Positions 12,902 through 51,530 are shown, counted from the stretch's first letter. The stretch: 64,000 nt of DNA from Bacteroidales bacterium (GCA_035389045.1 DAOORA010000018.1:1-64000); one strand, 5' to 3'. A program made the numbers and translations. Notes: a model not told the origin generated them from the sequence alone.

Positions 12902-12936
12902 TTTTTATTTTTGTGAGTTAAATAATCACAGACCTT

Positions 12937-13068: not shown

Positions 13069-13071
13069 ATG

Positions 13072-13106
13072 AAAAAAAAAGACTGCTTACCGGCAGTCTT
13101 TTTTTG
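13072..13106. terminator. Bidirectional intrinsic terminator
   Basis: A-tract-GACTGC-ttaccg-GCAGTC-T-tract between converging genes. Confidence 0.85.
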
Positions 13107-13116
13107 GTATGTTATT

Positions 13117-35400: not shown

Positions 35401-38400
35401 AGGTGTTCCATCTGTATTATAACGAATTACAACAAAATCTTCATTCGTACCATTATTGTAATATCCTGCTAAAATGATTTTTCCATCGGATTGTAATGCT
35501 ATAGATTTTCCTTCATCATAATTACCAAAATCCGTAGTAACAATTCCATCTGTAGAAAATGTATTATCAAGTACACCATCTGTATTATATCGGACTAAAG
35601 TAAATTTTCCAAAAGAACTATTTCCAGCAACAACAATTTTTCCATCTTCCTGTACTGCCACCGCACGCCCCCAATCATAATCACCAATAGGTGTTGTAAC
35701 TATCCCAGTTCCATTAAAGCTTAAGTCAAGAGAACCGGGCGAATTATTAGTAATTACTATATCATTTGATATACCAGCAACACAGGAAATATTTGATGTT
35801 AAAACGCATGTAATAACATCTCCATTAATTAATGTTGAAGTAGTAAAGGATGAATCATTGGTTCCTGTATTAACCCCATTAACTTTCCATTGATATAAAG
35901 GTAAAATAACATCATTGGAAGTATTGGCAATAAAAGTTAAATTAGTACCTGTACATATTGTTGACGTTGGAATTACAGAAATATTCAAACCAATATCAGG
36001 TACTGCCACCTCGATACTCTGTGGTGGTCCACTGCCGCATTTATTAAAAGGAGTTACCGTAATATTGCCACTTCCGTATCCAGTTGTTACTGTAATAATA
36101 TTAGTTGAATCCCCATTTGTTATTTGCCAACCAGCAGGTAACGTCCAGTTGTACAATACGCCATCTATATATGGAACACTATATGTCTGTGTGCTATTTA
36201 CACAGGGGGATAAAGAACCTGTTATTGAGGTGGGTTGCACAGGTTGCTCACACTTATCAACTTGAACACTATCGACAAACCAAACATCACCACTATATTG
36301 AACAATAACAAAAGCCAAAAATACCGATTGCCCCAAGAAAGTATCAAGATCAATTATTCTTTTTGTATATTCTGTTCCAAAAGATGTCTCATTATATGAT
36401 ACGATATCAGTAAAACTACCCAGGTCCGTTTGTGATGTTGTTGAGACTTTTATTTTATAAGTAGCACCAAAATCAGTTAAATCCCATTGTTTTTCATAAA
36501 AAATCAATTTATTACCGCTTGAATCAAGTCTGATACGCGGAGTAACAAGCCAGTGCTCTTTAAATACAGAAGGATTAGGATCAGGCATTGCATAAGCACA
36601 GCCCGTGCCTTCATATGTTTGACCAGTAATTCTTACCCAATTGTCTTCTGTACCCGTAATTCCGTTAGTTACGTTATAAGAAATCCAGCAAGACGGTGGA
36701 AAAATATCATTATTAAAAAGTTCAATAAAAGGCAAATCAGAAGGAGGTATTGTCGTATGCAGAATCGAATTTGATGTTACAACCGGGCTTCCTGATATGC
36801 AGGAAGCATTTGATGTCAATACACATATAACTGTATCTCCACTAGCCAATGTTGAACTTGAAAATGAAGAACTATTTGCTCCAACATCTGAACCATTGAC
36901 ATTCCATTGATAAATAGGCGAAATCCCTTCATTATTAGGACTTGCCGTATAAGTATAACTGGCACCCTCCTGGCATATTGTGTTCGCAGATATAATTATG
37001 CTGACAGGCAAGTTGGGAAATATAGTTATTTCATTTGAAATAGCAGGATTTCCAGATGCACAAATAGAATTGGATATCAGTTCACAACTTATAATATCTC
37101 CGTCCACTAATGTTGAACTTGTAAAAGAAGAACTATTTGTCCCGACATCTGAACCATTCACCTTCCATTGATAAATAGGTGCATCTCCTCCATTTGTCGG
37201 GGTTGCCGTGAAGGTAACATTTTCACCAGCGCATATCATTCCAGATGGATTTGATGATATGCTCACGTTGACAGGTGCAGAGTTATTAACAGTTACTGCT
37301 AAATTTTGTGTAGCACCATTGCCGCAAATATTGCTTGGTGTTACAGTGATATTGCCGCTTTGTGAACCAACAATAACAAATTCAGAACTTGTTTGTTGTG
37401 AAATCCAATTTGTTCCGCCATTGCTCGTTTTAAGAATTGTTGCATAACTACCAGTAACATAGCCTGTAGTTGCATCGGTGAAATAAACTGAAGATAAATA
37501 GTTCGTTGTCCCGCTTATTTGTGTTATCCAGGTTGCGCCACCATTGATTGTTTTAAGAATTATTCCATTTTCTCCAACAGCGTAACCCGTATCGGCATCA
37601 ATAAAAAATACGCAATTTAATTGATTATATGTTCCACTTATTTGAGTTGACCAGTTTGTTCCTCCATTGATTGTTTTAAGAATTGTTCCTGTTCCATTCA
37701 TATAATTATACCCGACAGCATATCCAGTATTGGCATCAGTGAAATATACAGAACTCAATCTTTCGGTTCCACTTCTTAACAAAGTCCAATTACTTCCCCC
37801 ATCAATAGTTTTTATAATATTACCATTAAATCCCACTACATACCCGGTATTGATATTAGTAAAATTAGCAGAACATAAATAACTGGTGGCATTGGTTGCA
37901 AGAACCGCCCAATTATTTCCACCATCCGTGGTTTTAATAATTCTTGCCTCAAAATCTACTGCATATCCATTATTTGAATCAGTGAAGTATACAGAAAATA
38001 AATCATAAGAATTACTAATAGATAGATCAGTCCAAACAAGACCTCCATTGCTTGTTTTTAGAATTGTTCCATTAAAGCCAACAGCATAACCGGTATTGGC
38101 ATCGGTAAAATAAACAGAAATCAGAGTGTTAATAGTTCCACTTGTTTGTGCTGTCCAGTCATTACCAGCATTTGTGGTTTTTAAAATCGTCCCACTAACG
38201 CCTACTGCATAACCTGTGTTGACATCGGTGAAGAAAATACAATAAATACTGTTTAGACCAGATTGGCTCCATCCTGATGGGAATGTCCAATTGTATGTTA
38301 CTCCAGCTATATTTGATAAACTATATATTTGTGTACTGCCTTGGCAAACTTCTGTGGGTCCCGATATAGTGCCCATCATTGGATATTGATTTACAATAAC

Positions 38401-39156
38401 ACTAACAGCAAGAGTTGTAGCATTACCATTGCACCCATTGGGAGAATTAACAGTGCAGGAATAATTGCCGGAATCAGTTACAATAATTGATTGGGATGTA
38501 GCTCCTGTACTCCATAAATAACCGCTTCCGGGAGTAGCGGTTAAAACCACACTGTCGCCCTGGCAAAATGTAGTAGGTCCATTTGCAGTAATAAGTGCAG
38601 AGGGGGTGGAGCTTATTATAACCAACATAGAATCCGTTTTACCACATCCATTGGTATCTGTTATGATACAATGATATTGGCCAGAAATAGCAACCGTAGC
38701 ATTTGTAATAGAGGGATTTTGAGATGTTGAAGTAAAACTATTAGGCCCAGTCCAACTATAAGAAGCGCCCGAAACATTATTCGCCACCAAATTTAAAGTC
38801 AGCCCTTCACATAAAGGACTGTTTGCTGAAAGGGATAATGGTGGGATGGGGTTTACATTTATTGTCAAAACATTTGAGCCCAAATATGATTCATCCGGGA
38901 ATACAAATAATCCTTGCACATAAATAGTCTGACTAGGATAAAATGTAGTATTATTAAGTGTTTGCCAATTTGAACCGTTATAAGAATAATACCAATGATT
39001 TATACAATTACCCGATACAGTAACAGGATCATTTTCGCAAACATTTAAACTTGAAGCCCAAATAGTAACAGGCCAACATTGAGAGAATCCTTTAAAAGGA
39101 ATGAATAAGATAACTATGAATAGAGGTTTAAAAAAAAAGTTTTTGATTTTTTTCAT
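32464..39156 (-). CDS. 2230-aa modular T9SS type A substrate (Ig/PKD repeats, YCF48-like propeller, cleaved-adhesin-like domain, delta-60 repeats, dockerin-like and cohesin-like regions, CTD)
   Basis: Signal peptide GFS-Q; repeats FTDANTGYAVG..GTILKT..GG.NW; EHWLVTPRI; repeats Q.DGKIIVAG...DFAVVRYN.NGTLDNTFS.DG; C-terminal YPNPFS...AGMYTF. Confidence 0.85.
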   Translation of the reverse strand: MKKIKNFFFKPLFIVILFIPFKGFSQCWPVTIWASSLNVCENDPVTVSGNCINHWYYSYNGSNWQTLNNTTFYPSQTIYVQGLFVFPDESYLGSNVLTINVNPIPPLSLSANSPLCEGLTLNLVANNVSGASYSWTGPNSFTSTSQNPSITNATVAISGQYHCIITDTNGCGKTDSMLVIISSTPSALITANGPTTFCQGDSVVLTATPGSGYLWSTGATSQSIIVTDSGNYSCTVNSPNGCNGNATTLAVSVIVNQYPMMGTISGPTEVCQGSTQIYSLSNIAGVTYNWTFPSGWSQSGLNSIYCIFFTDVNTGYAVGVSGTILKTTNAGNDWTAQTSGTINTLISVYFTDANTGYAVGFNGTILKTSNGGLVWTDLSISNSYDLFSVYFTDSNNGYAVDFEARIIKTTDGGNNWAVLATNATSYLCSANFTNINTGYVVGFNGNIIKTIDGGSNWTLLRSGTERLSSVYFTDANTGYAVGYNYMNGTGTILKTINGGTNWSTQISGTYNQLNCVFFIDADTGYAVGENGIILKTINGGATWITQISGTTNYLSSVYFTDATTGYVTGSYATILKTSNGGTNWISQQTSSEFVIVGSQSGNITVTPSNICGNGATQNLAVTVNNSAPVNVSISSNPSGMICAGENVTFTATPTNGGDAPIYQWKVNGSDVGTNSSSFTSSTLVDGDIISCELISNSICASGNPAISNEITIFPNLPVSIIISANTICQEGASYTYTASPNNEGISPIYQWNVNGSDVGANSSSFSSSTLASGDTVICVLTSNASCISGSPVVTSNSILHTTIPPSDLPFIELFNNDIFPPSCWISYNVTNGITGTEDNWVRITGQTYEGTGCAYAMPDPNPSVFKEHWLVTPRIRLDSSGNKLIFYEKQWDLTDFGATYKIKVSTTSQTDLGSFTDIVSYNETSFGTEYTKRIIDLDTFLGQSVFLAFVIVQYSGDVWFVDSVQVDKCEQPVQPTSITGSLSPCVNSTQTYSVPYIDGVLYNWTLPAGWQITNGDSTNIITVTTGYGSGNITVTPFNKCGSGPPQSIEVAVPDIGLNISVIPTSTICTGTNLTFIANTSNDVILPLYQWKVNGVNTGTNDSSFTTSTLINGDVITCVLTSNISCVAGISNDIVITNNSPGSLDLSFNGTGIVTTPIGDYDWGRAVAVQEDGKIVVAGNSSFGKFTLVRYNTDGVLDNTFSTDGIVTTDFGNYDEGKSIALQSDGKIILAGYYNNGTNEDFVVIRYNTDGTPDSTFSDDGIATTAIGSDADLGMSVVMQTDGKIVVAGYYYNFSYDFAVVRYNANGTLDNTFSGDGKVTTSIGSYDYAYSAALQADGKIIVAGISDNGSNYDFAVVRYNANGTLDNTFSGDGKVTTSIGSSDDFGYSVVVQADGKIIVAGSSNNGSNNDFALVRYNTNGTLDNTFSNDGKVTTDIGSTYDWGYSVAMQADGKIIVAGSSYGGFALVRYSTNGALDSTFSDDGILTTAIGSHIDDAKAVSVQNDGKIVVAGVSHNGLDHDFAVARYIGDGPIITYQPDSQTSCIGGNVMFNVKTSDCISLPIKYQWKKDGSNIIGATNDTLVINNATLADTGSYTCFVSDSAGYTSSEHALLYISSSIPVGVSISSNPSGPICAGTSVTYTATPVNGGAAPAYQWYLNDTLVGTDITYSNSSLNNGDSIKCRVTSNEACVINNPAWSNMIHIVVNPLPTAEAGATAIYTGTPILIGNPNNGPGTISWSPAAGLSDTTIAQPLASPATTTTYTLSVNNNGCIATDTVTITFGGLGHTITGKTHYLARAVAGNPAPNHPTYNSVIYNIDHVIVILKHYPEGTEQARDTSDATGNYHFANVMDGNYVLSYDKYTADTMQICNDINAIDVTLVKYYIGADTITDPSRNFSAKYKKAANVDNFLSINSIDISRIKAKVGSPTNPVKNFPKGNWVAIDTLVTIAGSDIIINLKTICYGDYNASSSKYRDSSATWNSAKSLPENIIVQSDESIMTTGNEYFEVPLRISAKMKDFSALGLELNYPDKDFMLVNVFMPKTSSKNGQVKINPSMEEIIADDNDLLVTDEDGVIRVVFATTNHFNVAANDELVTLGFRSVNDLVQGEVEFTLSGSGVIGDMYGEENDDAFLLMPKIFVQGDNNDPEFEFAGYPNPFSDDATLTYKIPENGTVKLKVYNAIGELVSEVINEAQTSGKHSVMFSQKDQPAGMYTFKLEFTGLNKSKCLILKLIH
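34580..35730 (-). repeat. About seven delta-60-type repeats (~55 aa), some nearly identical in DNA
   Basis: e.g. GAAAAAGTATTGTCAAGTGT.CCATTTGCATTATAACGGACAACAGCAAAATCATAA occurs at ~35051 and ~35219. Confidence 0.85.
37395..38265 (-). repeat. Seven ~41-aa YCF48/BNR-like propeller repeats
   Basis: Repeated (S/C)VYFTD.NTGYAVG..G.ILKT.NGG..W. Confidence 0.85.
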
Positions 39157-39292: not shown

Positions 39293-40147
39293 TTAAAAGT
39301 AATTCGTCATATTTTCCTTTGTTGGAGTAATTGTTATGTCCATAATTATCCATACAATGCAAGTCTCTTTAAAAGAACCATTTTTAGGGATTATTTTGAA
39401 TTGACAATAATTTTTACCATCCTTTGTTTTTTCTTTATATTGTACCTCTTGTACTATATTTAAACCTTGCTTAATCTTAACCTTGTAATTATCCATTTTA
39501 ATACCTTCAGGCAAATTTTCAACAATCACAACGCTATCTTTAATTTCATCTTTACGACAGACAATTTCTGTCCTTAGTAAAATCTTTTTATGAAAGGACA
39601 AACCATAACCATTGCCTGTCGAATCACATTTCTCATCAATGACGAATTTCTTTTCATGAACCGGACGCAATGAAATTAAAAGTAATGCAGACGAGGCGCC
39701 GCCAGCGTTAACTAATGCAATAACAACCGCATCAAGTGCTAACACAGATATGTCATAGATTAAGTTGCCAACATTAAATTTGTAAAAATATTTGTCTGTC
39801 AAAACAAAGGAATATTTTTTATTTGATTTTCCATTTTTGATTTTTTGTTTACGCTCCATTAAATATGTCTTTTCTTTGTCACTTCTGTCTTTTTTGATCT
39901 TTTTAATTTTTGCCCGATCAAGTTCTGCTGTATCGTTTTTTAATGAAAATGTTATGTCATTATATGGCACAATAACAGTATTGCTATCTTTTTTATAATA
40001 AGCAAATGTTTCATTTTTCGTTATCAAGCTGTCCGGCACATTGCTCTTTTTATGTATTCCTCCGGTTTTAAGATATGCCACAGGAACTGTTTTGCATGAT
40101 GTGGCGACTATTAACAAAATACTTACTAAAAGAATTATTTTTTTCAT
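39293..40147 (-). CDS. Hypothetical lipoprotein with an internal hydrophobic segment
   Basis: Lipobox VATSC; SD AAGAGGA upstream; hydrophobic stretch ISVLALDAVVIALVNAGGASSALLLISL. Confidence 0.7.
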   Translation of the reverse strand: MKKIILLVSILLIVATSCKTVPVAYLKTGGIHKKSNVPDSLITKNETFAYYKKDSNTVIVPYNDITFSLKNDTAELDRAKIKKIKKDRSDKEKTYLMERKQKIKNGKSNKKYSFVLTDKYFYKFNVGNLIYDISVLALDAVVIALVNAGGASSALLLISLRPVHEKKFVIDEKCDSTGNGYGLSFHKKILLRTEIVCRKDEIKDSVVIVENLPEGIKMDNYKVKIKQGLNIVQEVQYKEKTKDGKNYCQFKIIPKNGSFKETCIVWIIMDITITPTKENMTNYF

Positions 40148-40327
40148 GATTTATTTCCTCTTGGTTTAAAATTTATTGTATTTAAAACGGATTTATATAT
40201 GGAGCATTTAGAAACTAATTTTCAGATGTTTTTTCACCCCGTCGCTAAAAAGTGAAAGATCTGAAAATCAGCAACCCTTTAGGTTTCTGGTTAACACTGA
40301 TTTTCAGTATTTTGAGGTGCCCTGCAA

Positions 40328-40723
40328 TTAATTGGTACAATATCCTTTGCCACTCTCCAGAATGTGTGACCCATTATCATCAGTCCAAATTAATTTTATC
40401 CAATAATAATTCATGAGTATATATCCCGCAGGCGCTTGATAAACAGTCGATTTGGTTTGATAGGAATTCGAATTGAATGCAAATTGTTCAGATTTTTGCA
40501 TTGTTTGGTCGCCATGATACGAATTCTCCCACCACCATTCAACGGTGACGGTAAATGTTTTTTGGGGTTTCCTTGAGAGTATCTTTCCTTCAAAGCTTGC
40601 AGAAAGAGCATCCACCTGCGAACCGCCAACGGGGCTTTGTTTGATTGATAAGGAAAGTTCTTCTTCCTTTTTGCAGCCAGCTAAAAAGATTATAGCGCTG
40701 ATAATAATAATTACTTTTTTCAT
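40328..40723 (-). CDS. Hypothetical lipoprotein, probably surface exposed
   Basis: Lipobox LAGC followed by KKEEE (export-signal-like); SD AAAGGAGGAA. Confidence 0.75.
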   Translation of the reverse strand: MKKVIIIISAIIFLAGCKKEEELSLSIKQSPVGGSQVDALSASFEGKILSRKPQKTFTVTVEWWWENSYHGDQTMQKSEQFAFNSNSYQTKSTVYQAPAGYILMNYYWIKLIWTDDNGSHILESGKGYCTN

Positions 40724-40752
40724 TTTTTGGTTCCTCCTTTTTTATTTTATGA

Positions 40753-41493
40753 TTAATTTTTAGTTCCGCTTATTGAGCAATTGAACCCCATAGAAGTACT
40801 ATTGTCCAAACTTGTGTATTTAACATAATAGTTGATGGTCAGAATATTTGATTTAGATAGGATCCCGGTTCCTTTAATAGCTATCATGGTTCCCGATCCT
40901 CTGCCTAAAGCATCATTCCATACCTGATTTGGGATAATGAAAATATTTGCAGAAGTCATGGTTGCTATGATATTTACATCCGACGATCCGACAAAATTTG
41001 ATATGAGCAATTTATTTGTGGCAGCACCCTTATAAATATTAATATGTTTGGGGGAATTTTCGGTCGTATTAATTGTGCATGAGCTATTCATATCCCAAGT
41101 CCCGACAAATTTGTCCCTGGGATCAATCGGGGCAATAAAACTTATAACAACATCATCAGAAGATGAGCCGCAATTATTTGAAATGGTCCATCTTAATGTA
41201 TAAGTAGTTCCAACGGATCCTGTAAAAGTTGTTGTGGGGTCTTTAATATCCTGAATTACCCCGTTATTCCCTTCAACAATACTCCAGAAACCCGTTCCTT
41301 CGGTTGGGTTATTGGCTGTCAGAGTTGCGGCGGTTCCCTGTACTGATAATTGATCTTGTCCTGCCGCTGCATTTGTCAGTAATGTTTTGCGGTTGCCACC
41401 AGGGTTGTTTTCTGGATTGATTTCTTCTTTTTTGCAATTTGAAAATAGAACTGCAATAAAGGTAATTGCCAAAATTAAAATCAACTTTTTCAT
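40753..41493 (-). CDS. Lipoprotein with PKD/Ig-like domain
   Basis: FSNC-KKEE; ANAG-like AAAGQDQ...GTGFWSIV...YTLRWTI; DPRDKFVGTW; SD AGGAGGA. Confidence 0.75.
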   Translation of the reverse strand: MKKLILILAITFIAVLFSNCKKEEINPENNPGGNRKTLLTNAAAGQDQLSVQGTAATLTANNPTEGTGFWSIVEGNNGVIQDIKDPTTTFTGSVGTTYTLRWTISNNCGSSSDDVVISFIAPIDPRDKFVGTWDMNSSCTINTTENSPKHINIYKGAATNKLLISNFVGSSDVNIIATMTSANIFIIPNQVWNDALGRGSGTMIAIKGTGILSKSNILTINYYVKYTSLDNSTSMGFNCSISGTKN

Positions 41494-41527
41494 AATATAT
41501 TCCTCCTGATCATTATTTATTATTAAG

Positions 41528-41848
41528 TTATTTTCTATGATTTGTATCTATTAAATATAAAGGGTATTTCACCGGCTTTGGCAGTGGAGGATCGGGAGGC
41601 AAAATGTTTACAGGCTGTTTTGATTCCGGGATAATATTTTTAACTGAAATATCTTTTAATAGTTCAACTTTGGGCGTAATTTTTATTGTATTTAATTTAG
41701 GTAAAGACGGCTTATAGACATTTGTGTGTATGGGAACCGATTTATTACCCTTAAAAAATCCTTTTTGGGCAGAAACACAATGTATGCTTCCCGAAAAAAA
41801 GAATAACAATAATGTTATTAGTACGATTTTTATGCTTAGTTTTTTCAT
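41528..41848 (-). CDS. Small exported Pro/Lys-rich hypothetical protein
   Basis: Signal peptide ending VSA-Q; SD AGGAGA. Confidence 0.55.
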   Translation of the reverse strand: MKKLSIKIVLITLLLFFFSGSIHCVSAQKGFFKGNKSVPIHTNVYKPSLPKLNTIKITPKVELLKDISVKNIIPESKQPVNILPPDPPLPKPVKYPLYLIDTNHRK

Positions 41849-41889
41849 TTTTTTATCTCCTGTTTTTATGTGTTATTTTTAATATTTAA

Positions 41890-41917
41890 TTCGGTGCAGG
41901 TAAAAACCCGCACCGAA
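41890..41917 (-). terminator. Stem-loop after the first gene of the five-gene operon (partial terminator or mRNA stabiliser)
   Basis: Minus strand TTCGGTGCGGG-loop-CCTGCACCGAA; the G-U pair is only possible on the minus strand; no clear U-tract. Confidence 0.5.
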
Positions 41918-41929
41918 AAACGTTATATT

Positions 41930-42385
41930 TTAATGTAAATCAACAACAGAATTATCCCTGTAAAAAACAATAATTTTAAAATCATAACTATAGGTGGCGG
42001 AAATGCTGTTGTAATTTTTAAGAGTAATTTTCATGTCTCTGGAAGTAAAAGGTGTATATTCTATCATTTCTATATTATCCTCACTGGCACTTTCTGCTAA
42101 TTTATAACCATCATTATCATATAAGTATAAATCCATATCGATTACTCCTTTTTCCAAGGGAAAGGCTACTATGGCGTAATTGTATCCGCTATAAAAAGTT
42201 TTTAAAAAATGTACAGAATTCCCTTTATTAATGTTGAAATCCTGTATTGTGGCCACATCATAATCATACTTGTCTTTCATTAAAACACAAAATTCATGTG
42301 TGGCAACTTCAGACTCATTGTTCTGTGCATAAGTTGCGATAAAGCAACTGAACATTAAAGCTAAAATAATTAGTGACTTTTTCAT
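41930..42385 (-). CDS. Exported protein, PPC-like beta-sandwich
   Basis: Signal peptide ATYA-Q; DMDLYLYDNDGYKLAES; SD GGAGGA. Confidence 0.65.
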   Translation of the reverse strand: MKKSLIILALMFSCFIATYAQNNESEVATHEFCVLMKDKYDYDVATIQDFNINKGNSVHFLKTFYSGYNYAIVAFPLEKGVIDMDLYLYDNDGYKLAESASEDNIEMIEYTPFTSRDMKITLKNYNSISATYSYDFKIIVFYRDNSVVDLH

Positions 42386-42476
42386 TTTTTGGTTCCTCCA
42401 TTTTTTAAATTAATAATTTGTTATATTTGTTTTTTTTAATTTTGTTTTTTTTATTTTATCGGTAATTTTGAATATG

Positions 42477-42507
42477 AATGTTCCGACAATAAGCCCGTGT
42501 TACAAAA
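42477..42507 (-). promoter_or_regulatory. Candidate ECF promoter TTTTGTAACAC-N16-CATT upstream of the five-gene operon
   Basis: Same motif and spacing as 51500-51530. Confidence 0.6.
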
Positions 42508-42592
42508 AAGTGAAAATATTTTTTAATGTTTTGCTAAGTCAATGTTAATCAAATACTTAATTGTTAAGATGTTTTGAATAAATTTTATTACC

Positions 42593-45500
42593 ATGAAAAA
42601 AAATCAAATTGTAATTATGCTTCTTGTGGGTTATTGCGGTTTTTTTAATTCATCACTTTATGCACAATCAATGAAAACGCTTGACAGTCTCATTATTTAT
42701 TATTTTGATAAAGCAGATTATGACAGTGCTCTTTTAATTGCTGAAAAGGCTAAAGTTCAGGCTGAATCTGAGTTTGGAAAAAATGACACTAACTATGCGA
42801 ATGTTTTGAATAATTTTGGTGCGATCTATTATTCATTAGGAGACTATTCCAAAGCGGAATCATATTTTAATGATGCTTTATCCATTAAAAAAAATATACT
42901 TGGAGAAAGACACCCTAATTATGCCCAATCATTACGAAATTTGGGCGAATTATACAAAAATCTTGGTGATTATACAAAAGCAGAAACATTATTTATTAAA
43001 GTTAATGAGATATACAAGGAATATTTCGGTGAAAATAATTTAGAATATTCAAAATCCTTAAGGTCATTAGGCGGTCTTTACTCAAAAACTGGTGATTACA
43101 CTAAAGCAGAACCATTGCTTTTAAAGGAACTTGAAATCCTTAAGAATTTATTAGGTGATAAGAATACAGAATATGCCAGTTCCGTAAATGGGTTAGCATT
43201 ACTTTATAATCGTATGGGTAATAATACTCAAGCTGAAGCATATTATATTCAAGCTATAAATTTGCGAAAAGAAATTTTAGGAGAAAAACATCCCGATTAT
43301 GCCACATCTATAGGGAATTTAGGTCTTTTATATAAAGAAACAGATAGATTTTCTGAAGCAGAACCATTATTAATTCAATCAAAGGATATAATAAAAGAAT
43401 CGTTAGGCATTAATCACCCCGATTATTTAATTACCCTAACTAATTTGGGGACATTGTATCTGGAAATGGGTAATTATGAAAAGGCAGAGCCTTTATTGCT
43501 CGAAGCAAAAAATGGCGGAAAAGAAATACTTGGCGAAAAAAACCCTACCTATGCAACATATATAAACAATATTGAATGCTTATATTCTGAACTAGGTGCT
43601 TATTCTAAATCAGAACCTTTATGCCTTGAAGCCTTAAAGATAAGAAAAGAAGCTTTGGGTGAAAAAAGTATGGACTATACTTATTCATTAAATAATGCCG
43701 GGGCATTATATTATAAAATGGGATATTATGCCAAGGCCTTATTCTTTTTCCTGAAAGTGAAAGATAATCTCAAGAAAATCCTTGGAGATAAACATAATAC
43801 TTATGCAAGTATCTTATCAAACCTTGGCACGTTATACGAAACAATGGGGAATAATGATGAAGCGGAGCAATGCTTGCTTCAGGCATTGTCTATTAAAAAT
43901 ACAACTTCGGGAGACCAAAGCATAGATTATTCTACGTCTTTAAACAATTTAGCTACATTTTATTTTACTATTGGAGATTATACAAAGGCAGAACTGTATT
44001 TTATTCAGGCATTAAATATTCGCAAAAATAAACTTGGTGAAAAAAATCTAAAATATGCCACTTCATTGCATAATCTTGGAGTTTTGTACTCAGAAATGGG
44101 ACAAATGGATAAAGCCGAGAAAATGTTCACAGAAGCCGCAGGTATCAGGAAAGAGATTTCTGGTGTATTAAATGATGACTATGCTACTACTTTGAATAGT
44201 ATAGCGAAGATCTATCAAGCAAGAGGAAAATCATCATTGACAAAAGATATGCAATTAGAAGATTTCTCTAAAGCGGAAAAAATGTTTCTTGAGTCGTTAA
44301 ACATTCGCAAAGAAAAACTGGGTGTGAAAAATACCGGTTATGCCTTATCCTTAAATAATTTAGCAGCATTATACGTAAATATAGGTAATTCAGTATCAAT
44401 TAAAGACAGTTCCCTGCCTAACTACATAAAAGCAGAATCATTATATGTTGAGGCAAAAAACATTTACAGAGATGTTCTTGGAGAAAAAAACTCAAATTAT
44501 GCTATTGTATTAAATAATTTAGCGCTATTATATCAGTCAATGTGCAGATATAAGGATGCATTCCTTTCCTTTTCCGAATTTTTAAAAATACAATATTATA
44601 ATATTCAGAATAATTTCAGCTTCATGAGCGGAATTGAAAAAGAAAAATACTTAGAAACACTTAAAAAGGATTTCAATAATTATAATGCATTTGTCTCTAA
44701 AGCATATAAAGAAACACCTGAAATCACAAAAGAGGATTATAATTATTACCTTGTCATAAAAGGCATACTTTTAAACAGCAGCATTCAGATGCAGGATAAT
44801 ATTACAGGAAGTGGCGATACCCTTCTAATCCGAATGTATAAAGACTGGATGGATCAGAAACTTTGGATTGCAAACTTACAGCAAATGAGTAGTTCGAAAA
44901 TTCGGAAAATGGGCTATAACATTGATTCTTTAGAGAATGTGACAAATACTATTGAAAAAGAATTATCCAAAAAATCAAGTTTTTTTGCTAAAGAAAGGGA
45001 ATCACAGCAACTCTTCTGGGAGGATATACAAAAAAATTTGAAAATTACTGATGCTGCAATTGAGATTGCAAATTACAAGACTGCACCAATTAATAAATTC
45101 GATGAGAATGGCAATCATATAAAAGGAGAAGATACTTCCATGTATTATGCTCTTATAATTAGGCCTGGATATTCACAACCTGAGATGAAATTTTTGTTTG
45201 AACAAAAGCAATTAGACTCAGTCCTTAATCTTGCAGCAGGTGACGATAAACAGATAACAAATCAACTTTATGCAGGCAATGAAATAAATGTAAACAATTC
45301 AGAAAAGGGGAAATATCTTGCATCTAAACTATATGAGCTGATATGGAAACCTATAGAACCATTAATGAATGGTGTCAGCACTATTTATTATTCTCCATCA
45401 GGGCTACTGCATAAAATTTCTTTTGCGGCATTATACACTCCCGACAATATGTATTTATCAGACAAATACAATCTGGTTCAATTGAGCAGCACTAGAGAAA

Positions 45501-46321
45501 TCATTAAGATAAAAACACAGAAGGATTATATCACTCAGGCCGATTCGGCTTTGGTATTTGGGGGAATTAATTACAACCAGATGTATGCAAAAGAAGATAC
45601 AGCGGAGAATAAAAACATGCTCGCATTCAGCCGCGGGATTCAAATTCCGGACGATAGCTCACGGACTGCAATTTGGGGATATCTGAAAGGATCAATGAAG
45701 GAAGCACAATATATCGACAGCCTTTTCAGGAAGAACAAAGTAGTTACCGCTTTTTACAGCGACAGCAATGCAACTGAGGGTTTGTTTAAAAACATTTCAG
45801 GGAAAGCGCCTCGGATCATTCATATTTCCACTCATGGTTTCTTTTTCCCTGATCCGGTGAAGAAAGATATGGTAGCGGAAATAGGCCAGCAAACATTTGT
45901 TTTTTCAGAGAATCCACTATTAAGAACAGGATTGATACTTGCCGGCGGTAATAATGTTTGGGCGGGAGAAGAACCGGTTATGGGAAAAGACGACGGCATA
46001 CTCACCGCTTATGAAGTTTCAAATATGGACCTGTCCAATACAAAACTTCTTGTTCTTTCAGCTTGCCAGACTGGCCTTGGAGATATTAAAGGAAACGAAG
46101 GCGTTTTCGGGTTGCAGAGGGCATTTAAAATGGCAGGGGTAGATTATATCATAATGAGTTTATGGTCGGTTCCTGATAAAGAAACTACGGAATTTATGCA
46201 ACTATTCTATACAAACTGCACAAAAAAACAGACTATCCGTGAAGCCTTTACCAATGCCCAGGCAAAGATGCGGAAGAAATATGATCCTTATTACTGGGCG
46301 GCGTTTGCACTGATGGAATAA
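42593..46321 (+). CDS. Exported TPR-CHAT caspase-like protease 1
   Basis: Signal peptide SLYA-Q; many 42-aa TPRs (LGEKHPDYATS..NL); CHAT dyad IHISTHGFF / VLSACQTG; end PYYWAAF. Confidence 0.93.
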   Translation: MKKNQIVIMLLVGYCGFFNSSLYAQSMKTLDSLIIYYFDKADYDSALLIAEKAKVQAESEFGKNDTNYANVLNNFGAIYYSLGDYSKAESYFNDALSIKKNILGERHPNYAQSLRNLGELYKNLGDYTKAETLFIKVNEIYKEYFGENNLEYSKSLRSLGGLYSKTGDYTKAEPLLLKELEILKNLLGDKNTEYASSVNGLALLYNRMGNNTQAEAYYIQAINLRKEILGEKHPDYATSIGNLGLLYKETDRFSEAEPLLIQSKDIIKESLGINHPDYLITLTNLGTLYLEMGNYEKAEPLLLEAKNGGKEILGEKNPTYATYINNIECLYSELGAYSKSEPLCLEALKIRKEALGEKSMDYTYSLNNAGALYYKMGYYAKALFFFLKVKDNLKKILGDKHNTYASILSNLGTLYETMGNNDEAEQCLLQALSIKNTTSGDQSIDYSTSLNNLATFYFTIGDYTKAELYFIQALNIRKNKLGEKNLKYATSLHNLGVLYSEMGQMDKAEKMFTEAAGIRKEISGVLNDDYATTLNSIAKIYQARGKSSLTKDMQLEDFSKAEKMFLESLNIRKEKLGVKNTGYALSLNNLAALYVNIGNSVSIKDSSLPNYIKAESLYVEAKNIYRDVLGEKNSNYAIVLNNLALLYQSMCRYKDAFLSFSEFLKIQYYNIQNNFSFMSGIEKEKYLETLKKDFNNYNAFVSKAYKETPEITKEDYNYYLVIKGILLNSSIQMQDNITGSGDTLLIRMYKDWMDQKLWIANLQQMSSSKIRKMGYNIDSLENVTNTIEKELSKKSSFFAKERESQQLFWEDIQKNLKITDAAIEIANYKTAPINKFDENGNHIKGEDTSMYYALIIRPGYSQPEMKFLFEQKQLDSVLNLAAGDDKQITNQLYAGNEINVNNSEKGKYLASKLYELIWKPIEPLMNGVSTIYYSPSGLLHKISFAALYTPDNMYLSDKYNLVQLSSTREIIKIKTQKDYITQADSALVFGGINYNQMYAKEDTAENKNMLAFSRGIQIPDDSSRTAIWGYLKGSMKEAQYIDSLFRKNKVVTAFYSDSNATEGLFKNISGKAPRIIHISTHGFFFPDPVKKDMVAEIGQQTFVFSENPLLRTGLILAGGNNVWAGEEPVMGKDDGILTAYEVSNMDLSNTKLLVLSACQTGLGDIKGNEGVFGLQRAFKMAGVDYIIMSLWSVPDKETTEFMQLFYTNCTKKQTIREAFTNAQAKMRKKYDPYYWAAFALME
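45716..46293 (+). repeat. 578-bp direct repeat, copy 1 (CHAT catalytic core)
   Basis: No mismatch seen by eye against 49154-49731 (offset 3438). Confidence 0.9.
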
Positions 46322-46393
46322 GCGGTAATTTCAAAAATAACATTACAAACAATAATTCAATAACTGTAGGTTATAAACTTAAATCCAAGGGGC

Positions 46394-49300
46394 ATGAAAA
46401 AAGTATTTTGTCTTCTAATCTTCGTTTACTCATTCTTTATTAATAATTCATCGTTTTGCCAAACTTGGCAACAGTTCGATTCCCTCCGAGCAGTATACAT
46501 GGAAAAGCAAAGTTACGACACAGCATTAGTAAATGCTGAGAAAGCACTACAGGCTGTAAAAGAAAAAGTTGGGGAAAACGATACTTTGTATGCAAATATT
46601 CTCTCATATTTATTAGAAATAAACTATTATATGGGAAACTATTCAAAGGCAATTGAATACGGCGAAAAGGAAAAGAAAATAAGAAAAAAAATTCAAGGCG
46701 AGAAACATCCTGCTTATGCCACAGCTATAAATAATCTTGCCATTGTTTATACAGGAATGGGCAATTACGACGCGGCAGAGTCCTTATACATTGAATCAAA
46801 GAACATTTGTAAAGAAGTTCTGGGAGAAAAACATCCCGATTATGCAATATCTTTAAACAATCTTGCCAATTTATACTATGCGATGGGCAAGTACGCAGCA
46901 ACTGAGACTTTGTATCTCGAATCAAATAAAATATTGAAAGAAGCTTTCGGTGAGAAACACATTAAATATGCTGGGTCATTAAACAATATGGCTATGTTTT
47001 ACTATAACACTGGTAATTACACTGCGGCCAAGCCTTTGTTAATTGAAGCTAAAAACATCTTTAAAGAAGTTTTGGGCACAAAACATCCTGATTATGCAAC
47101 CTCATTAAATAATGTAGCTTCATTATATGTTGATATGGGAAATTTCGTGGAAGCTGAGCCTATGGAGATTGAAGCAAAGAATATCCGCAAAGAGATTCTG
47201 GGAGAAAGACACCCTGATTATGCGATATCTTTAAACAATCTTGCCTATTTATACCAATCTATGGGCAATTATTTAGCTGCTGAACCATTGTTGGCTGAAG
47301 CAATGAACATTCGTAAAGAAGTGCAGGGCGAAAAAAGTGCTGATTATGCAAGTTCATTAAATAATCTCGCCTCAATATATGATTGTTTGGGTAATTTCTC
47401 TGCAACTGAGATTTTGTATATTGAGGCGAGAAACATCAGAAAAGAATTATTTGGTGAAAAAAACATTAAGTATGCAGGTTCTCTAAATAATCTCGCATAT
47501 TTATATACCAAGATGGGTAATTACTTTGCAGCTGAGCCTTTGTTTATTGAAGCAATGAATATACGCAAAGAAGTTTTGGGTGAGAAACACCCTGATTATG
47601 CTACTTCCTTAAACAATCTCGCCTCATTATATGACAACATGGGCAATTATCCTGTAGCTGAGACTTTATTTATCGAAGCAATGAACATACGCAAAGAAGT
47701 GTTGGGTGAGAAACACCCTGATTATGCTGCTTCCTTAAACAATCTTGCCGTATTATATCATAAGATGGGCAATTATGTTGCTGCCGAGCCTTTGTATGTC
47801 GAGGCGATGAATATTTGTAAAGAAATACTGGGCGAAAAACACCCTGATTATGCACGATCTTTAAACAATCTTGCCGAATTTTACAGAGCTATTGGAAAAT
47901 ATGATGCGGCTGAACCCTTGTATCTTGAGGCAAAGAACATATTTAAAGAAGTGCTGGGTGAAAAGCATCCTTATTATGCTATATCCTTAAACAATCTTGC
48001 AGGATTATATTTTGAAAATAGCAATTACCCTTTGGCCGAGCCTTTGTATCTTGAAACTATTCATATCACATTATATAATATTGAACAACAATTTAGTTTT
48101 TTATCTGAATTCGAAAAAGAAAAATATCTAGCAACTGTAAAGAAAAACTTCCATACATGCCAAAGTTTCATTATACAGCGCAAAAATAAAAACCCAGGCA
48201 TCACAACTGAAGCTTATAATATTGAATTAGCAACAAAAGGTCTATTACTTGGCTCAGGTAAGCAAATGCGCCAAAGTATAATGAGGGGAGGAGATACAGT
48301 TTCTATTAAAATATACAATCATTGGATGTCATCAAAAGGGACATTATCCAACCAATATTCCTTGCAAATATCCAAGCGTACACTTGATACAAGAGTCCTT
48401 GAAGAAGAAACAAATAAATTAGAAAAGGAACTGGTCCGCATTTCACAAGTTTATTCACAAGGGCAATTGCTTCTCAAAACACATTGGGAAGATATCTTTA
48501 AATGTTTAGAAAACGAAGAAGCTACCATTGAATTTGCTTCCTTTAACTATTACAATAAAGGTCAAAAAACAGACAGCATATTATATTGTGCGCTTATTGT
48601 CCGCTCTGAATATACGCAACCTGAAATGGTTTATCTGTTTGAGCAAAAACAGTTGGATAGTCTCATGTCCATACCCGGAAAAGATAAAGAAATTGCCGGC
48701 AATTTATATTCAAACACCGGGTCTCAAATAAATAAAGGTACAAATGACAATAGCTGTTCCGGAAACTTATATAAATTAATTTGGGAACCAATAGACAGCC
48801 TGCTTCAGGGAGTTAAAACCATTTATTATTCGCCCTCAGGTTCATTGCATAAAATTTCCTTTGCCGCATTAAACACTCCCGATAATATGTATTTATCAGA
48901 CAAATACAATCTGGTTCAATTGGGCAGCACAAGAGAAATAATAAAGTTAAAAACACAGAAGGATTATATCGTTCAGACCGATTCTGCCCTGGTGTTTGGT
49001 GGTATTAATTACAACCAGATGTATGCAAAAGTAGACACTGCGGGGAATAAAAACATGCTCGCATTCAGCTGCGGGACTCAAATCCCGAACGATAGCTCAC
49101 GAAGTGCAATTTGGGGATATCTGAAAGGATCAATGAAAGAAGCAAAATATGTTGACAGCCTTTTCAGGAAGAACAAAGTAGTTACCGCTTTTTACAGCGA
49201 CAGCAATGCAACTGAGGGTTTGTTTAAAAACATTTCAGGGAAAGCGCCTCGGATCATTCATATTTCCACTCATGGTTTCTTTTTCCCTGATCCGGTGAAG

Positions 49301-49759
49301 AAAGATATGGTAGCGGAAATAGGCCAGCAAACATTTGTTTTTTCAGAGAATCCACTATTAAGAACAGGATTGATACTTGCCGGCGGTAATAATGTTTGGG
49401 CGGGAGAAGAACCGGTTATGGGAAAAGACGACGGCATACTCACCGCTTATGAAGTTTCAAATATGGACCTGTCCAATACAAAACTTCTTGTTCTTTCAGC
49501 TTGCCAGACTGGCCTTGGAGATATTAAAGGAAACGAAGGCGTTTTCGGGTTGCAGAGGGCATTTAAAATGGCAGGGGTAGATTATATCATAATGAGTTTA
49601 TGGTCGGTTCCTGATAAAGAAACTACGGAATTTATGCAACTATTCTATACAAACTGCACAAAAAAACAGACTATCCGTGAAGCCTTTACCAATGCCCAGG
49701 CAAAGATGCGGAAGAAATATGATCCTTATTATTGGGCGGCGTTTGTACTTATGGAATAG
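46394..49759 (+). CDS. Exported TPR-CHAT caspase-like protease 2
   Basis: Signal peptide SFC-Q; regular 42-aa TPRs; same His/Cys dyad. Confidence 0.93.
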   Translation: MKKVFCLLIFVYSFFINNSSFCQTWQQFDSLRAVYMEKQSYDTALVNAEKALQAVKEKVGENDTLYANILSYLLEINYYMGNYSKAIEYGEKEKKIRKKIQGEKHPAYATAINNLAIVYTGMGNYDAAESLYIESKNICKEVLGEKHPDYAISLNNLANLYYAMGKYAATETLYLESNKILKEAFGEKHIKYAGSLNNMAMFYYNTGNYTAAKPLLIEAKNIFKEVLGTKHPDYATSLNNVASLYVDMGNFVEAEPMEIEAKNIRKEILGERHPDYAISLNNLAYLYQSMGNYLAAEPLLAEAMNIRKEVQGEKSADYASSLNNLASIYDCLGNFSATEILYIEARNIRKELFGEKNIKYAGSLNNLAYLYTKMGNYFAAEPLFIEAMNIRKEVLGEKHPDYATSLNNLASLYDNMGNYPVAETLFIEAMNIRKEVLGEKHPDYAASLNNLAVLYHKMGNYVAAEPLYVEAMNICKEILGEKHPDYARSLNNLAEFYRAIGKYDAAEPLYLEAKNIFKEVLGEKHPYYAISLNNLAGLYFENSNYPLAEPLYLETIHITLYNIEQQFSFLSEFEKEKYLATVKKNFHTCQSFIIQRKNKNPGITTEAYNIELATKGLLLGSGKQMRQSIMRGGDTVSIKIYNHWMSSKGTLSNQYSLQISKRTLDTRVLEEETNKLEKELVRISQVYSQGQLLLKTHWEDIFKCLENEEATIEFASFNYYNKGQKTDSILYCALIVRSEYTQPEMVYLFEQKQLDSLMSIPGKDKEIAGNLYSNTGSQINKGTNDNSCSGNLYKLIWEPIDSLLQGVKTIYYSPSGSLHKISFAALNTPDNMYLSDKYNLVQLGSTREIIKLKTQKDYIVQTDSALVFGGINYNQMYAKVDTAGNKNMLAFSCGTQIPNDSSRSAIWGYLKGSMKEAKYVDSLFRKNKVVTAFYSDSNATEGLFKNISGKAPRIIHISTHGFFFPDPVKKDMVAEIGQQTFVFSENPLLRTGLILAGGNNVWAGEEPVMGKDDGILTAYEVSNMDLSNTKLLVLSACQTGLGDIKGNEGVFGLQRAFKMAGVDYIIMSLWSVPDKETTEFMQLFYTNCTKKQTIREAFTNAQAKMRKKYDPYYWAAFVLME
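49154..49731 (+). repeat. 578-bp direct repeat, copy 2
   Basis: Matches 45716-46293. Confidence 0.9.
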
Positions 49760-49782
49760 AAACCCCGCCCCAGAGAATGGAT

Positions 49783-50616
49783 TTATTTCGTTATTTTAAA
49801 CTTTCCGGTATGCGGGTACTCAATATCTTCTGATGGAATTACGCGCCAGTAATAAAGGCCGGGAATTAAGGTAGGGGATTGAAAATAAAATTCCGCTGTC
49901 CATTTAATGCCTTTTATATTATCCTCTTCATGAATTTTATTCCCTTTATTATCATAGACCACTATTTTGTACAATAAATCCTTGTAATTACTCCGCCATT
50001 TGAAACATATTTTTTCTCCTGATTTGAACTTTGCATCATTAGCAGGAAGAGGGTCAATTAATAAGAATTTTTGTTGTGCTCCTCCACGTATTTCCGCAAA
50101 AGCAAGTTCATCATTAATAGAACTATCTAAAACAGGGTTACTTGCATAACTGGGTTCAGCAGCCTGTTGTTGCTGTTTTATTATTTCCGGGTTATTGGCG
50201 AAATTTTTCGGTTCTTTAATTTCTTTATTTTGTTTACGAACCGGATTTTTGATTTTTTTTCTTTCAATTTTACTTAGGTCTCTGAGAGATTTATTTTCTG
50301 ATTCTCTCTGGTAATATTTCGGTACAAAAATAATTGCCAGTGTCGCTAAAGCTGCAGCAACTGCAATTGCAGTATATAAATAATAAACCCTATTTCTTTT
50401 TTTGCTTTTTATGACTGGTTTGTTAATATTGTAAATGATTTCTTTCTCAGCGTTTGTCTGTATCGTCTCAATAATTGTCCGTATTTGATCTAACTCTTCC
50501 ATACATGATTCACAGAAAAATAAATGCTCTTCAAAAGCATCAGCTTCGGCAGAATTAAGTTTTCCCAGAAGGTATTTCTCAACAATTACTTTTTCGGTTA
50601 TTTCTTTGTGATCCAT
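49783..50616 (-). CDS. Zinc-binding (ZAS/zf-HC2) membrane anti-sigma factor with periplasmic Ig-like domain
   Basis: EKYLLGKL...FEEHLFFCESC (HxxxCxxC); TM YLYTAIAVAAALATLAIIFV; C-terminal FKW...YKIVVYD...PGLYYWRV; 13 nt downstream of the sigma gene. Confidence 0.8.
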   Translation of the reverse strand: MDHKEITEKVIVEKYLLGKLNSAEADAFEEHLFFCESCMEELDQIRTIIETIQTNAEKEIIYNINKPVIKSKKRNRVYYLYTAIAVAAALATLAIIFVPKYYQRESENKSLRDLSKIERKKIKNPVRKQNKEIKEPKNFANNPEIIKQQQQAAEPSYASNPVLDSSINDELAFAEIRGGAQQKFLLIDPLPANDAKFKSGEKICFKWRSNYKDLLYKIVVYDNKGNKIHEEDNIKGIKWTAEFYFQSPTLIPGLYYWRVIPSEDIEYPHTGKFKITK

Positions 50617-50629
50617 CTTTCTGGTTACA

Positions 50630-51514
50630 TTAGATGTTCGAATTATTCATATATTTCTTAAGCTTTTCCAAAGCACGAAATTTAATTTGCCTGATATTTT
50701 CCGGTGTTTTTTCCAGATCATCAGCAATTTCTTTCAATTCAAATCCATGATAATAAAAACGAACCAAAATCTCATATTCAATTTTATCTAAGATACTCAA
50801 AAAAGAAGAAACAAAATCCGTATTATCTTTATTGATTACATAATTATCTGTTGACAAAAAATCATATCCGTCATAAGATTCGGTACGTTCAAATCTATTT
50901 TGTCGTCTCGATATTTCAGTAAAATATTCTTTGATTTTTAAGTCAGCAATACAATACACATAGGATTTGAGGGCTTTTGAGTTTTCAAATTCAAGGTTAT
51001 TATCTTGCATTTTATCTGAAAAAGTTGTCAGTGTACTTGTGCAAATTTCATTTGAATCTTCAGCAGGCATCTTTTGTTTCATATAAATCTTAATGATCAG
51101 TAACCTGCTCATTCTTTCATGAAAAATAAACCAAACTGAATTAATCTTTCTTTTTAAGGCAACAAAAAAAGATTTAAATCCATTATTCATGTTCTCAATA
51201 AAAATTTCATGAATAAAAATTTTTAATGCAGATATATTATCAAATGATGGTCTTTTTTCCAGATATACGGACTTAATATTATTAATTATCAGTATATAAA
51301 TGTTCTCAACTGATGAGTACGGTTTATCATTTTCTGCTGTCCACATAACCTCAATATTTTCCTCATTACACCAACGCTTGAAATACAATTTAGCATTCAA
51401 ATGCAACCACCTCCATGCAGATATATCATCATGAATAAGCTTTAGATTAAACTCCTCCATGTTTAATGGAGCATTTGCTAATTCGTCTTTCTGCATAATA
51501 ATGACATAAACCAA
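50630..51514 (-). CDS. Atypical, long ECF-like sigma-70 factor (true start may be ATG 51496 or 51460)
   Basis: C-terminal region 4 LDKIEYEILVRFYYHGFELKEIADDLEKTPENIRQIKFRALEKLK; sigma2-like ALKSYVYCIA; adjacent to a ZAS anti-sigma. Confidence 0.75.
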   Translation of the reverse strand: MVYVIIMQKDELANAPLNMEEFNLKLIHDDISAWRWLHLNAKLYFKRWCNEENIEVMWTAENDKPYSSVENIYILIINNIKSVYLEKRPSFDNISALKIFIHEIFIENMNNGFKSFFVALKRKINSVWFIFHERMSRLLIIKIYMKQKMPAEDSNEICTSTLTTFSDKMQDNNLEFENSKALKSYVYCIADLKIKEYFTEISRRQNRFERTESYDGYDFLSTDNYVINKDNTDFVSSFLSILDKIEYEILVRFYYHGFELKEIADDLEKTPENIRQIKFRALEKLKKYMNNSNI

Positions 51515-51530
51515 TAGATGTGTTACAAAA
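51500..51530 (-). promoter_or_regulatory. Candidate autoregulatory ECF promoter TTTTGTAACAC-N16-CATT
   Basis: Same motif and spacing as 42477-42507; directly upstream of the sigma gene. Confidence 0.6.

Follow-up and report, generated by a model that had tools for sequence, protein, structure and literature searches.

What links two exported proteases to the sigma factor operon on which they converge, and is that link peculiar to one genome? The question is raised by positions 39293-51530 of a 64,000-nt stretch of DNA from Bacteroidales bacterium (GCA_035389045.1 DAOORA010000018.1:1-64000), which was analyzed as a whole and is referred to below as the window. From left to right, this part of the window encodes five minus-strand genes (284, 131, 246, 106, and 151 amino acids, aa), two plus-strand giants with tetratricopeptide repeats (TPR) and a CHAT protease domain (CHAT1 and CHAT2), and two minus-strand genes for an anti-sigma factor and a sigma factor; coordinates are given in Table 1. 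The initial annotation read the locus as a CRISPR-independent, trans-envelope signaling system in which the CHAT proteases cut the anti-sigma, and it named a lack of co-occurrence of these genes in other genomes as refuting that reading. We found that the locus is a real member of a conserved, apparently unpublished module, in which a displaced, duplicated protease is the locus-specific twist. The mechanism is plausible.

Pfam resolved both giants into TPR_12/TPR_10 arrays followed by a CHAT domain, which spans residues 909-1241 of 1242 in CHAT1 and 789-1120 of 1121 in CHAT2 and, by extending to the last residues of both, leaves no room for a type IX secretion system (T9SS) tail. Each N-terminus consists of MKK and approximately 13 hydrophobic residues followed by YA|Q or FC|Q. 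Bacteroidota often cleave signal peptides before Q, and the small residue plus Q was read as a probable signal-peptidase-I site. The motifs HISTHG and LSACQTG are found in both proteins, and H956, H960, and C1037 (CHAT2 numbering) are unchanged across a nine-sequence CHAT alignment. Both proteins fit the CHAT (clan CD, caspase-like) fold with a catalytic His and Cys, from which proteolytic activity is predicted. The description of two tandem TPR-CHAT genes with signal peptides, intact His/Cys dyads, and no T9SS C-terminal domain was thus borne out by Pfam, the N-termini, and the alignment. The open reading frame (ORF) calls likewise bore out their convergence on the sigma/anti-sigma operon, with 23 bp between the end of CHAT2 and the anti-sigma stop, tail-to-tail; the same layout, with gaps of 45-98 bp, was observed in the related loci L050, L052, and L053.

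The two CHAT proteins are 56% identical overall. Their TPR parts, including ten 126-bp repeat units in CHAT2, have diverged, and their CHAT domains are nearly identical. Within the shared 3′ tract, which was delimited by blastn and sliding identity, five 100-nt windows at 45722-46221 are 100% identical. This points to recent gene conversion, or possibly to assembly collapse of a repeat. Conversion would preserve one catalytic specificity while the two TPR sensors differ. A related locus (L054) likewise carries two CHATs with near-identical ends.

The sigma factor was matched by the sigma70-ECF model TIGR02937 (cut-off 42.9 bits; ECF, extracytoplasmic function) over only residues 140-289 of 294 aa, and it therefore carries an N-terminal extension; Pfam region 2 was not detected in it. 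Translation probably begins no earlier than the ATG at 51496. The resulting length range of 288-294 aa does not match the compact ECF size (~170-200 aa, no extra domains), and shorter relatives of 186-195 aa occur in the same module type. When 1.84 billion representatives were searched with a profile built from the sigma and one close relative, 365 proteins were retrieved at E<=1e-3, 45 of them at E<=1e-10. The best matches were mostly 275-290 aa long and aligned end to end, and a 33-sequence alignment identifies the extension as a family trait. The AlphaFold2 model (pLDDT 88.7) had as its top Foldseek matches the ECF sigmas sigmaE, SigL, and SigH, at E ~1e-3, just above the 0.001 line of the tool. 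Judged by its sequence, the protein belongs to the ECF (group 4) sigma-70 family. A sigma on contig C5 that matched the profile was rejected as a module relative, as it belongs to an ordinary ECF/anti-sigma pair without a CHAT.

The anti-sigma gene begins 13 bp past the sigma stop. Its product carries H31-x3-C35-x2-C38, and these three residues together with R177 are invariant in all eight family sequences, seven of which were detected by zf-HC2 (cut-off 22.2 bits). The family profile weakly matched the N-termini of RsiW, RslA, and DdvA. The AlphaFold2 model comprises helices of the zinc-binding anti-sigma (ZAS) domain at 8-64, a transmembrane helix from 75, a disordered stretch at 118-152, a helix at 161-177, and a beta-sandwich at 187-276, for which Foldseek gave generic Ig-like domains only. 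R177 sits at the end of the periplasmic helix, at the helix/domain junction. The protein conforms to the ZAS H-x3-C-x2-C pattern, and binding of both sigma and zinc is predicted. The genome encodes one RseP-like M50 protease.

We assessed the recurrence of this arrangement by three surveys, each starting from a different component. PF12770 matches were obtained in 8 of 23 family genomes, and among the 15 non-window loci taken from this CHAT-first survey (109 neighboring ORFs scanned) seven have an ECF-type sigma and a single-pass partner beside the CHAT. In the sigma-first survey, the 33-sequence profile was run on 401 genomes of the order and the best 20 other loci were taken; a local CHAT profile located a CHAT beside the sigma in nine of them, including the seven top-scoring. 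Five of those nine (L050-L054) share the kind of ZAS anti-sigma seen in the window (type A), ending in GLYYWQL…TGK, and all five have an adjacent CHAT. In the anti-sigma-first survey of 401 genomes of the phylum, 19 loci with a match covering the C-terminal domain were taken, and a CHAT is convergent with the anti-sigma in 18 of them. Ten of the 19 have a sigma-position ORF that was flagged by local profiles; in the eight remaining CHAT-linked loci, this ORF gave sub-threshold TIGR02937 matches (E 8e-4 to 1e-8). Overall, a type A anti-sigma has an adjacent CHAT in 23 of 25 non-window loci, counts that, like the others here, come from genomes related to one another and are not independent trials. 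The two exceptions are L095 and G014, the latter being the closest relative. The co-occurrence on which the initial annotation had staked its reading is therefore found elsewhere.

The components also co-vary. Mantel correlations over 17 modules were 0.65 for sigma and CHAT, 0.83 for sigma and anti-sigma, and 0.71 for anti-sigma and CHAT, values reached by none of 5000 permutations. In genomes with two modules, the components sort by module type and not by genome; in modules of type B the anti-sigma ectodomain is TPR. Orthologues of the sigma are scarce. One occurs in one of 22 other family genomes, that of G014 (sigma 54% and anti-sigma 65% identical), and the G014 contig was the only result of a related-locus search over one genome per species. 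The corresponding search of metagenome contigs with a four-sequence alignment returned only the window's own contig, and a word-based homologue search returned only itself for the sigma and four proteins, including itself, for the anti-sigma.

The proteases of the window belong to a different branch of the CHAT family from the usual partners. A maximum-likelihood tree of 26 CHAT domains contains two deep clades, each with 100/100 support. Clade II contains every sigma-linked partner CHAT that was placed in the tree (17, from 16 loci) and one CHAT without a sigma (L017), and clade I comprises the two CHATs of the window, the gene of G014, the third CHAT of the genome, and four sigma-less genes. 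With clade-specific hidden Markov models built without the window's own sequences, CHAT1 and CHAT2 scored 456 and 462 bits for clade I vs 156 and 153 bits for clade II, and all 18 phylum-level partners scored as clade II. On this sequence evidence, the window CHATs are not orthologues of the usual type A partners, so that the case for a link at this locus is made by position and by the promoter motif and not by orthology. The clade I pair seems to have displaced the usual clade II partner at the same position, in the simplest reading before the divergence of the window's own genome (G000, 4.46 Mb) from G014. If so, the slot would need a CHAT protease.

The promoter evidence consists of an 11-mer, TTTTGTAACAC, that occurs twice in the window, at 42497-42507 (-) and 51520-51530 (-), vs 0.07 expected, a count reached in none of 100 shuffles. 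The claim that a divergent five-gene exported/lipoprotein operon shares an upstream motif with the sigma gene was thereby confirmed. Genome-wide, TTGTAACAC occurs 39 times and the motif plus a -10-like part seven times. Among relatives, the sigma gene is preceded by TGTAAC(A/G)-N14/15-(G/A)(T/A)CAT in G014, L050, L052, and L053, with a looser copy in L054 and the variant TGTTAACA in L051, so that the TGTAAC motif is present in five of six relatives (the order-sample type A loci plus G014). A divergent second copy faces a small-exported-protein operon in L050 and a T9SS cargo gene in L053. The layout of the window is repeated in G014, where TGTAACG-N15-GTCAT precedes an operon of exported proteins that runs divergently from the clade I CHAT. 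In 25 other clade I loci, the motif is no more frequent than background (four matches in 358 kb, of which the two that were placed, in L008 and L084, lie inside the CHAT gene), and this order-level motif is not conserved in the phylum-level loci (two matches in 331 kb).

Based on these results, we propose that the locus encodes a three-component module spanning the inner membrane in which the CHATs cut the anti-sigma, a reading that we consider an even call. In the resting state, the ECF-like sigma would be held in the cytoplasm by the zinc-finger domain of the anti-sigma, whose periplasmic part would consist of an extended disordered linker followed by a short helix and an Ig-like domain. The two exported TPR-CHATs would reside in the periplasm, where their diverged TPR arrays may bind two different cues and their near-identical CHAT domains may make the same cut in the periplasmic part of the anti-sigma, and so serve as site-1 protease. 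Removal of the membrane stub by the only RseP-like (site-2) protease of the genome would next release the sigma. Its targets would be GTAAC-N16-GTC promoters, from which it would express its own operon along with the operon of five (perhaps six) lipoprotein and exported-protein genes. The parts fit these roles by sequence: signal peptides, an intact dyad, a ZAS domain with a transmembrane helix, an invariant Arg, and an RseP homologue. A wider version is that CHATs are general module-encoded site-1 proteases across Bacteroidota, working from an interchangeable protease slot, with conversion-matched catalytic domains that perhaps cut at Arg177, with diverging TPR sensors, and with surface remodeling as output (lipoproteins, outer membrane protein (OMP)-like proteins, and T9SS cargo). 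We offer it tentatively and, on balance, lean against it.

The CHATs could instead belong to the pathway without cutting the anti-sigma, either by processing an exported ligand or surface proteins or by docking through their TPR arrays on the anti-sigma ectodomain as co-sensors while the site-1 cut falls to another envelope protease. The linkage and co-variation described above indicate a shared function, not who cuts whom. Moreover, the anti-sigma ectodomain varies by module type (Ig-like here, TPR in type B) while the CHAT is constant, and possible substrates are available among the exported proteins, lipoproteins, and T9SS cargo of the sigma-linked operons. However, the gaps of the locus hold no small-peptide gene (four tiny ATG ORFs were found, none of them peptide-like), and the regulon proteins are not conserved between loci, which is a poor fit for a dedicated substrate. 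The precedent of DdvA indicates the anti-sigma linker as the target (PMC11506125). A co-fold of CHAT2 310-1121 with anti-sigma 100-277 from their own alignments scored 0.00 vs a mark of 0.32, which without controls is evidence for neither side. We regard a non-cutting role of the CHATs as unlikely.

A second alternative is that the adjacency is only historical: the sigma pair would have lost its clade II CHAT, the clade I tandem and the operon would be independent of it, like most clade I genes, and another protease or signal would control the anti-sigma. Several findings count against a working link between the CHATs and the sigma pair. The window CHATs are of clade I, and all 23 type A partners elsewhere are of clade II. 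Clade I CHATs are rarely sigma-linked: none of six in the family survey is, and among 401 order genomes searched at E<=1e-40, where 66 gave a clade I match, the best 20 loci include one with an adjacent sigma (L084), one with a sigma within 5 kb, and one that is ambiguous. In G014, the sigma/anti-sigma pair and the CHAT sit on different contigs, and an IS1595 transposase flanks the CHAT; L095, a type A locus, lacks a CHAT neighbor. The second motif copy in the window would drive the operon away from CHAT1, so the CHAT genes are not thereby placed under the sigma. In addition, an RNA contig ends at 51505, 9 nt upstream of the ATG at 51496, and overlaps the -10-like element at 51501-51505; together with a GTCAT only 4 nt before the ATG, this renders the exact promoter geometry uncertain.

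Nevertheless, a purely historical adjacency appears improbable to us. Only three CHAT genes are present in the whole genome, and two of them fill the exact convergent slot where 23 of 25 related loci have a CHAT, and the genome is left with no clade II CHAT that could serve the anti-sigma. In G000 and G014 alike, the clade I CHAT has the sigma-type promoter next to it, which is not the case at other clade I loci; the promoter-like motif thus ties the clade I neighborhood to the sigma. Furthermore, L084 again combines a clade I CHAT with a sigma/anti-sigma pair, which by its sequence is a second, independent joining of this clade to a sigma switch. These four observations argue that the CHATs and the sigma pair work together. 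The L084 operon (G227:C87, 6061-13027, -) encodes a Peptidase_C14-like caspase, recognized by sequence motifs only, a sigma, a TPR anti-sigma, and the clade I CHAT, which has N-terminal ankyrin-like repeats.

An anti-phage sensor like DdvA/DdvS, with a defense response and not surface remodeling as its output, would agree with the patchy distribution of the sigma orthologue and with the CBASS (cyclic-oligonucleotide-based anti-phage signaling system)/CRISPR island that is controlled by the only characterized TPR-CHAT anti-sigma, but it is very improbable, as PADLOC matched none of the 11 locus proteins except for a generic TPR on CHAT1, a search of the window gave no CRISPR-like array, and the sigma-type promoters precede exported, lipoprotein, OMP-like, and T9SS cargo genes. 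The same two checks agree with the remark in the initial annotation that no CRISPR or death effector is visible. No Rfam match was obtained in the window either.

Table 1. Coordinates and main properties of the features discussed, numbered from the first nucleotide of the window.
Feature	Position	Strand	Remarks
Sigma factor, ECF-like, with N-terminal extension of ~90-140 aa	50630..51514	-	Sigma70_r4 E 2.5e-10; TIGR02937 47.8 bits
Anti-sigma, predicted single-pass ZAS (type A)	49783..50616	-	277 aa; zf-HC2 24.6 bits; one transmembrane helix
CHAT1, predicted exported TPR-CHAT caspase-like protease, clade I	42593..46321	+	1242 aa; TPR_12 E 8e-109; CHAT E 1.6e-62
CHAT2, tandem paralogue of CHAT1	46394..49759	+	1121 aa; TPR_12 E 3e-128; CHAT E 2.2e-62
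Candidate gene-conversion tract	45380..46320, shared with 48818-49758	+	95.5% identical over 941 nt
Putative autoregulatory promoter	51501..51530	-	TTTTGTAACAC-N14-GTCAT (GTAAC-N16-GTC); ends 4 nt before the ATG at 51496
Second motif copy	42478..42507	-	TTTTGTAACAC-N14-AACAT; ~90 nt upstream of the five-gene operon, facing away from CHAT1
Operon gene 1, predicted exported protein	41930..42385	-	151 aa; N-terminal signal sequence; no family match
Operon gene 2, predicted exported protein	41528..41848	-	106 aa; N-terminal signal sequence
Operon gene 3, probable lipoprotein	40753..41493	-	246 aa (…FSNC|KKEE); ~90-aa domain with paralogues on contig C5
Operon gene 4, predicted lipoprotein	40328..40723	-	131 aa (…LAGC|KKEE); Pfam LPAM_1
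Operon gene 5, probable lipoprotein	39293..40147	-	284 aa (…ATSC); RNA contig 39661-39846, 100% identity
Possible sixth operon gene, T9SS cargo	32464..39156	-	2230 aa; Por_Secre_tail (NCBIfam); 136 bp downstream of gene 5

All five operon proteins start with MKK and a hydrophobic segment, and three have a lipobox-like Cys. None matched a Pfam or NCBIfam family, save for the lipoprotein attachment-site model LPAM_1 on the 131-aa protein, and none has relatives in the other loci at E<=1e-3, save for one weak match. Whether the 2230-aa T9SS cargo is a sixth gene of the operon is uncertain. The gap that separates it from gene 5 has no convincing terminator, although a scan for terminators and sigma-70 promoters gave counts near the shuffle expectation and is hence uninformative. 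In relatives, T9SS cargo genes follow the sigma-type promoter. The cargo protein itself has seven delta-60 repeats, a BNR/Ycf48-like region, and a choice-of-anchor J domain, and its gene contains a 171-bp tandem repeat at 34687-35487.

RNA evidence was obtained from contigs of one activated-sludge metatranscriptome run, which prove neither transcript ends nor single transcripts and for which DNA carry-over remains possible. The run contains 10% of the sampled words of the window. Eight contigs match the window at 100% identity; they lie over parts of the sigma gene, its junction with the anti-sigma gene, the gene for the 284-aa protein, the T9SS cargo gene, and the two genes past the sigma. 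The contig across the junction (50477-50723) is alone no proof of a single transcript. The CHAT genes and operon genes 1-4 are missed by these contigs, which says nothing on their expression.

As regards the anti-sigma ectodomain as a T9SS sorting domain, sub-threshold CHU_C matches were obtained in four of eight family members and a Por_Secre_tail match in one of eight, and hhalign of the ectodomain against three CHU_C domains gave a probability of 44% over 39 columns. The C-terminal GLYYW…TGKF.IK of the Ig-like ectodomain (49786-50079, -) resembles T9SS tail motifs. Elsewhere in the window, at 14735-16233 (+), a canonical ECF sigma (183 aa) has a 4-nt overlap with a 316-aa single-pass membrane protein that ends, on the periplasmic side, in a genuine T9SS sorting domain of CHU_C type B (E 1.7e-23). 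This anti-sigma-like protein with a secretion tail hints that the T9SS may feed into sigma control.

Among the relatives, L095 (G513:C1, 9080-13547, -), the sole phylum-level type A anti-sigma without a CHAT neighbor, has a 1195-aa T9SS cargo with SBBP repeats and a choice-of-anchor D domain directly upstream of the anti-sigma on the same strand. In G014 (L004, contig C103, and L011, contig C28), two T9SS cargo genes follow the sigma/anti-sigma pair, and the operon beside the clade I CHAT on the other contig contains paralogues of one of these cargo genes and of an OMP-like gene from the sigma/anti-sigma contig.

Two further observations concern the CHAT and sigma families. The third CHAT of the genome (L001, G000:C2:12000-31999, CHAT at 10317-13277) is a 986-aa clade I protein without a signal peptide that adjoins an Hsp70-like ATPase, a DUF1598 protein, and TPR proteins, and its locus looks like a separate, probably cytoplasmic, Hsp70-CHAT system. 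The sigma-position ORFs of three type A loci (L107, L108, and L109), which are divergent and sigma-like, matched the NCBIfam model for the RpoE-like sigma of type III-E CRISPR systems below threshold (E 3e-4 to 4e-3), which faintly suggests kinship among CHAT-linked sigmas.

Full-text literature searches, from which subscription journals are largely absent, yielded no publication on a split module of sigma, anti-sigma, and exported CHAT in Bacteroidota. A CHAT acting as the signal-activated site-1 protease of an anti-sigma has so far been proposed only for DdvA, where a test of the proposal was precluded by the union of sensor, protease, and substrate in a single protein and by the lack of a known signal. 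The split module separates the protease from its presumed substrate, and cleavage is therefore testable in trans. Conservation of the module extends throughout a phylum that is dominant in gut, soil, and wastewater communities, and it may therefore represent a common, unstudied route from the envelope to gene expression. The locus in the window offers a natural experiment within this module, with a CHAT of the other clade in the slot, a tandem pair, homogenized catalytic domains, and divergent sensors.

The module can be compared with four known systems. In classical regulated intramembrane proteolysis (RseA/DegS/RseP and RsiW/PrsW/RasP), a site-1 cut outside the membrane is followed by an M50 site-2 cut. 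The window shares with it a single-pass anti-sigma, an RseP-like gene, and the weak RsiW profile match, whereas its candidate site-1 protease is a module-encoded clan CD CHAT with a large TPR sensor and not a serine protease or metalloprotease. Among ECF groups, ECF54 has a CHAT/TPR protein conserved in its gene neighborhood, and regulation by proteolysis has been proposed; this group is restricted to Actinobacteria, lacks an anti-sigma, and is accompanied by carboxypeptidase-regulatory-like and subtilase genes (PMC8999054; PMC7826278 supplement). In contrast, the window has a ZAS anti-sigma and no adjacent subtilase, which is not the ECF54 context. The passages cited mention CHAT solely with actinobacterial ECF54 (PMC8999054; PMC7826278 supplement), and the word is absent from the main text of PMC7826278.

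In Craspase, the type III-E TPR-CHAT protein Csx29 reportedly cuts Csx30, which holds the sigma RpoE (PMC10028731). The principle that the proposed module would share is a TPR-CHAT protease that controls a sigma by cutting its holder. Craspase is cytoplasmic and RNA-activated via Cas7-11, whereas the proteases here carry signal peptides; no array was found in the window and no PADLOC Cas among the 11 locus proteins, the rest of the genome not having been searched for cas genes. The closer precedent is DdvA/DdvS. DdvA of Myxococcus xanthus is a ZAS-transmembrane-TPR-CHAT anti-sigma for the ECF-type DdvS, its periplasmic CHAT is proposed to serve as its own site-1 protease, cutting in trans within a dimer before RseP acts, and DdvA-like fused proteins are reported only from Myxococcota and one Comamonas (PMC11506125). 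Both systems combine an ECF-type sigma, a single-pass ZAS anti-sigma, and a periplasmic TPR-CHAT with a His/Cys dyad. They differ in that the TPR-CHAT of DdvA is the C-terminal part of the anti-sigma (~900 aa), whereas the window has a 277-aa anti-sigma with an Ig-like ectodomain and two separate signal-peptide CHAT genes, and in that DdvS controls CBASS/CRISPR genes, whereas the motif-bearing operons here encode surface proteins. The module in the window would thus work like DdvA but, having neither the fusion nor the defense island, is not a DdvA-type member. The CRISPR-independent, trans-envelope reading of the initial annotation is partly supported, by the linkage in 23 of 25 loci and by the shared motif, but its model, Csx29/Csx30, gives way to DdvA/DdvS as the nearest precedent; the module would represent a split, two-protein form of the fused DdvA/DdvS proposal, in which a pair from the other clade seems to have taken the place of the usual CHAT partner.

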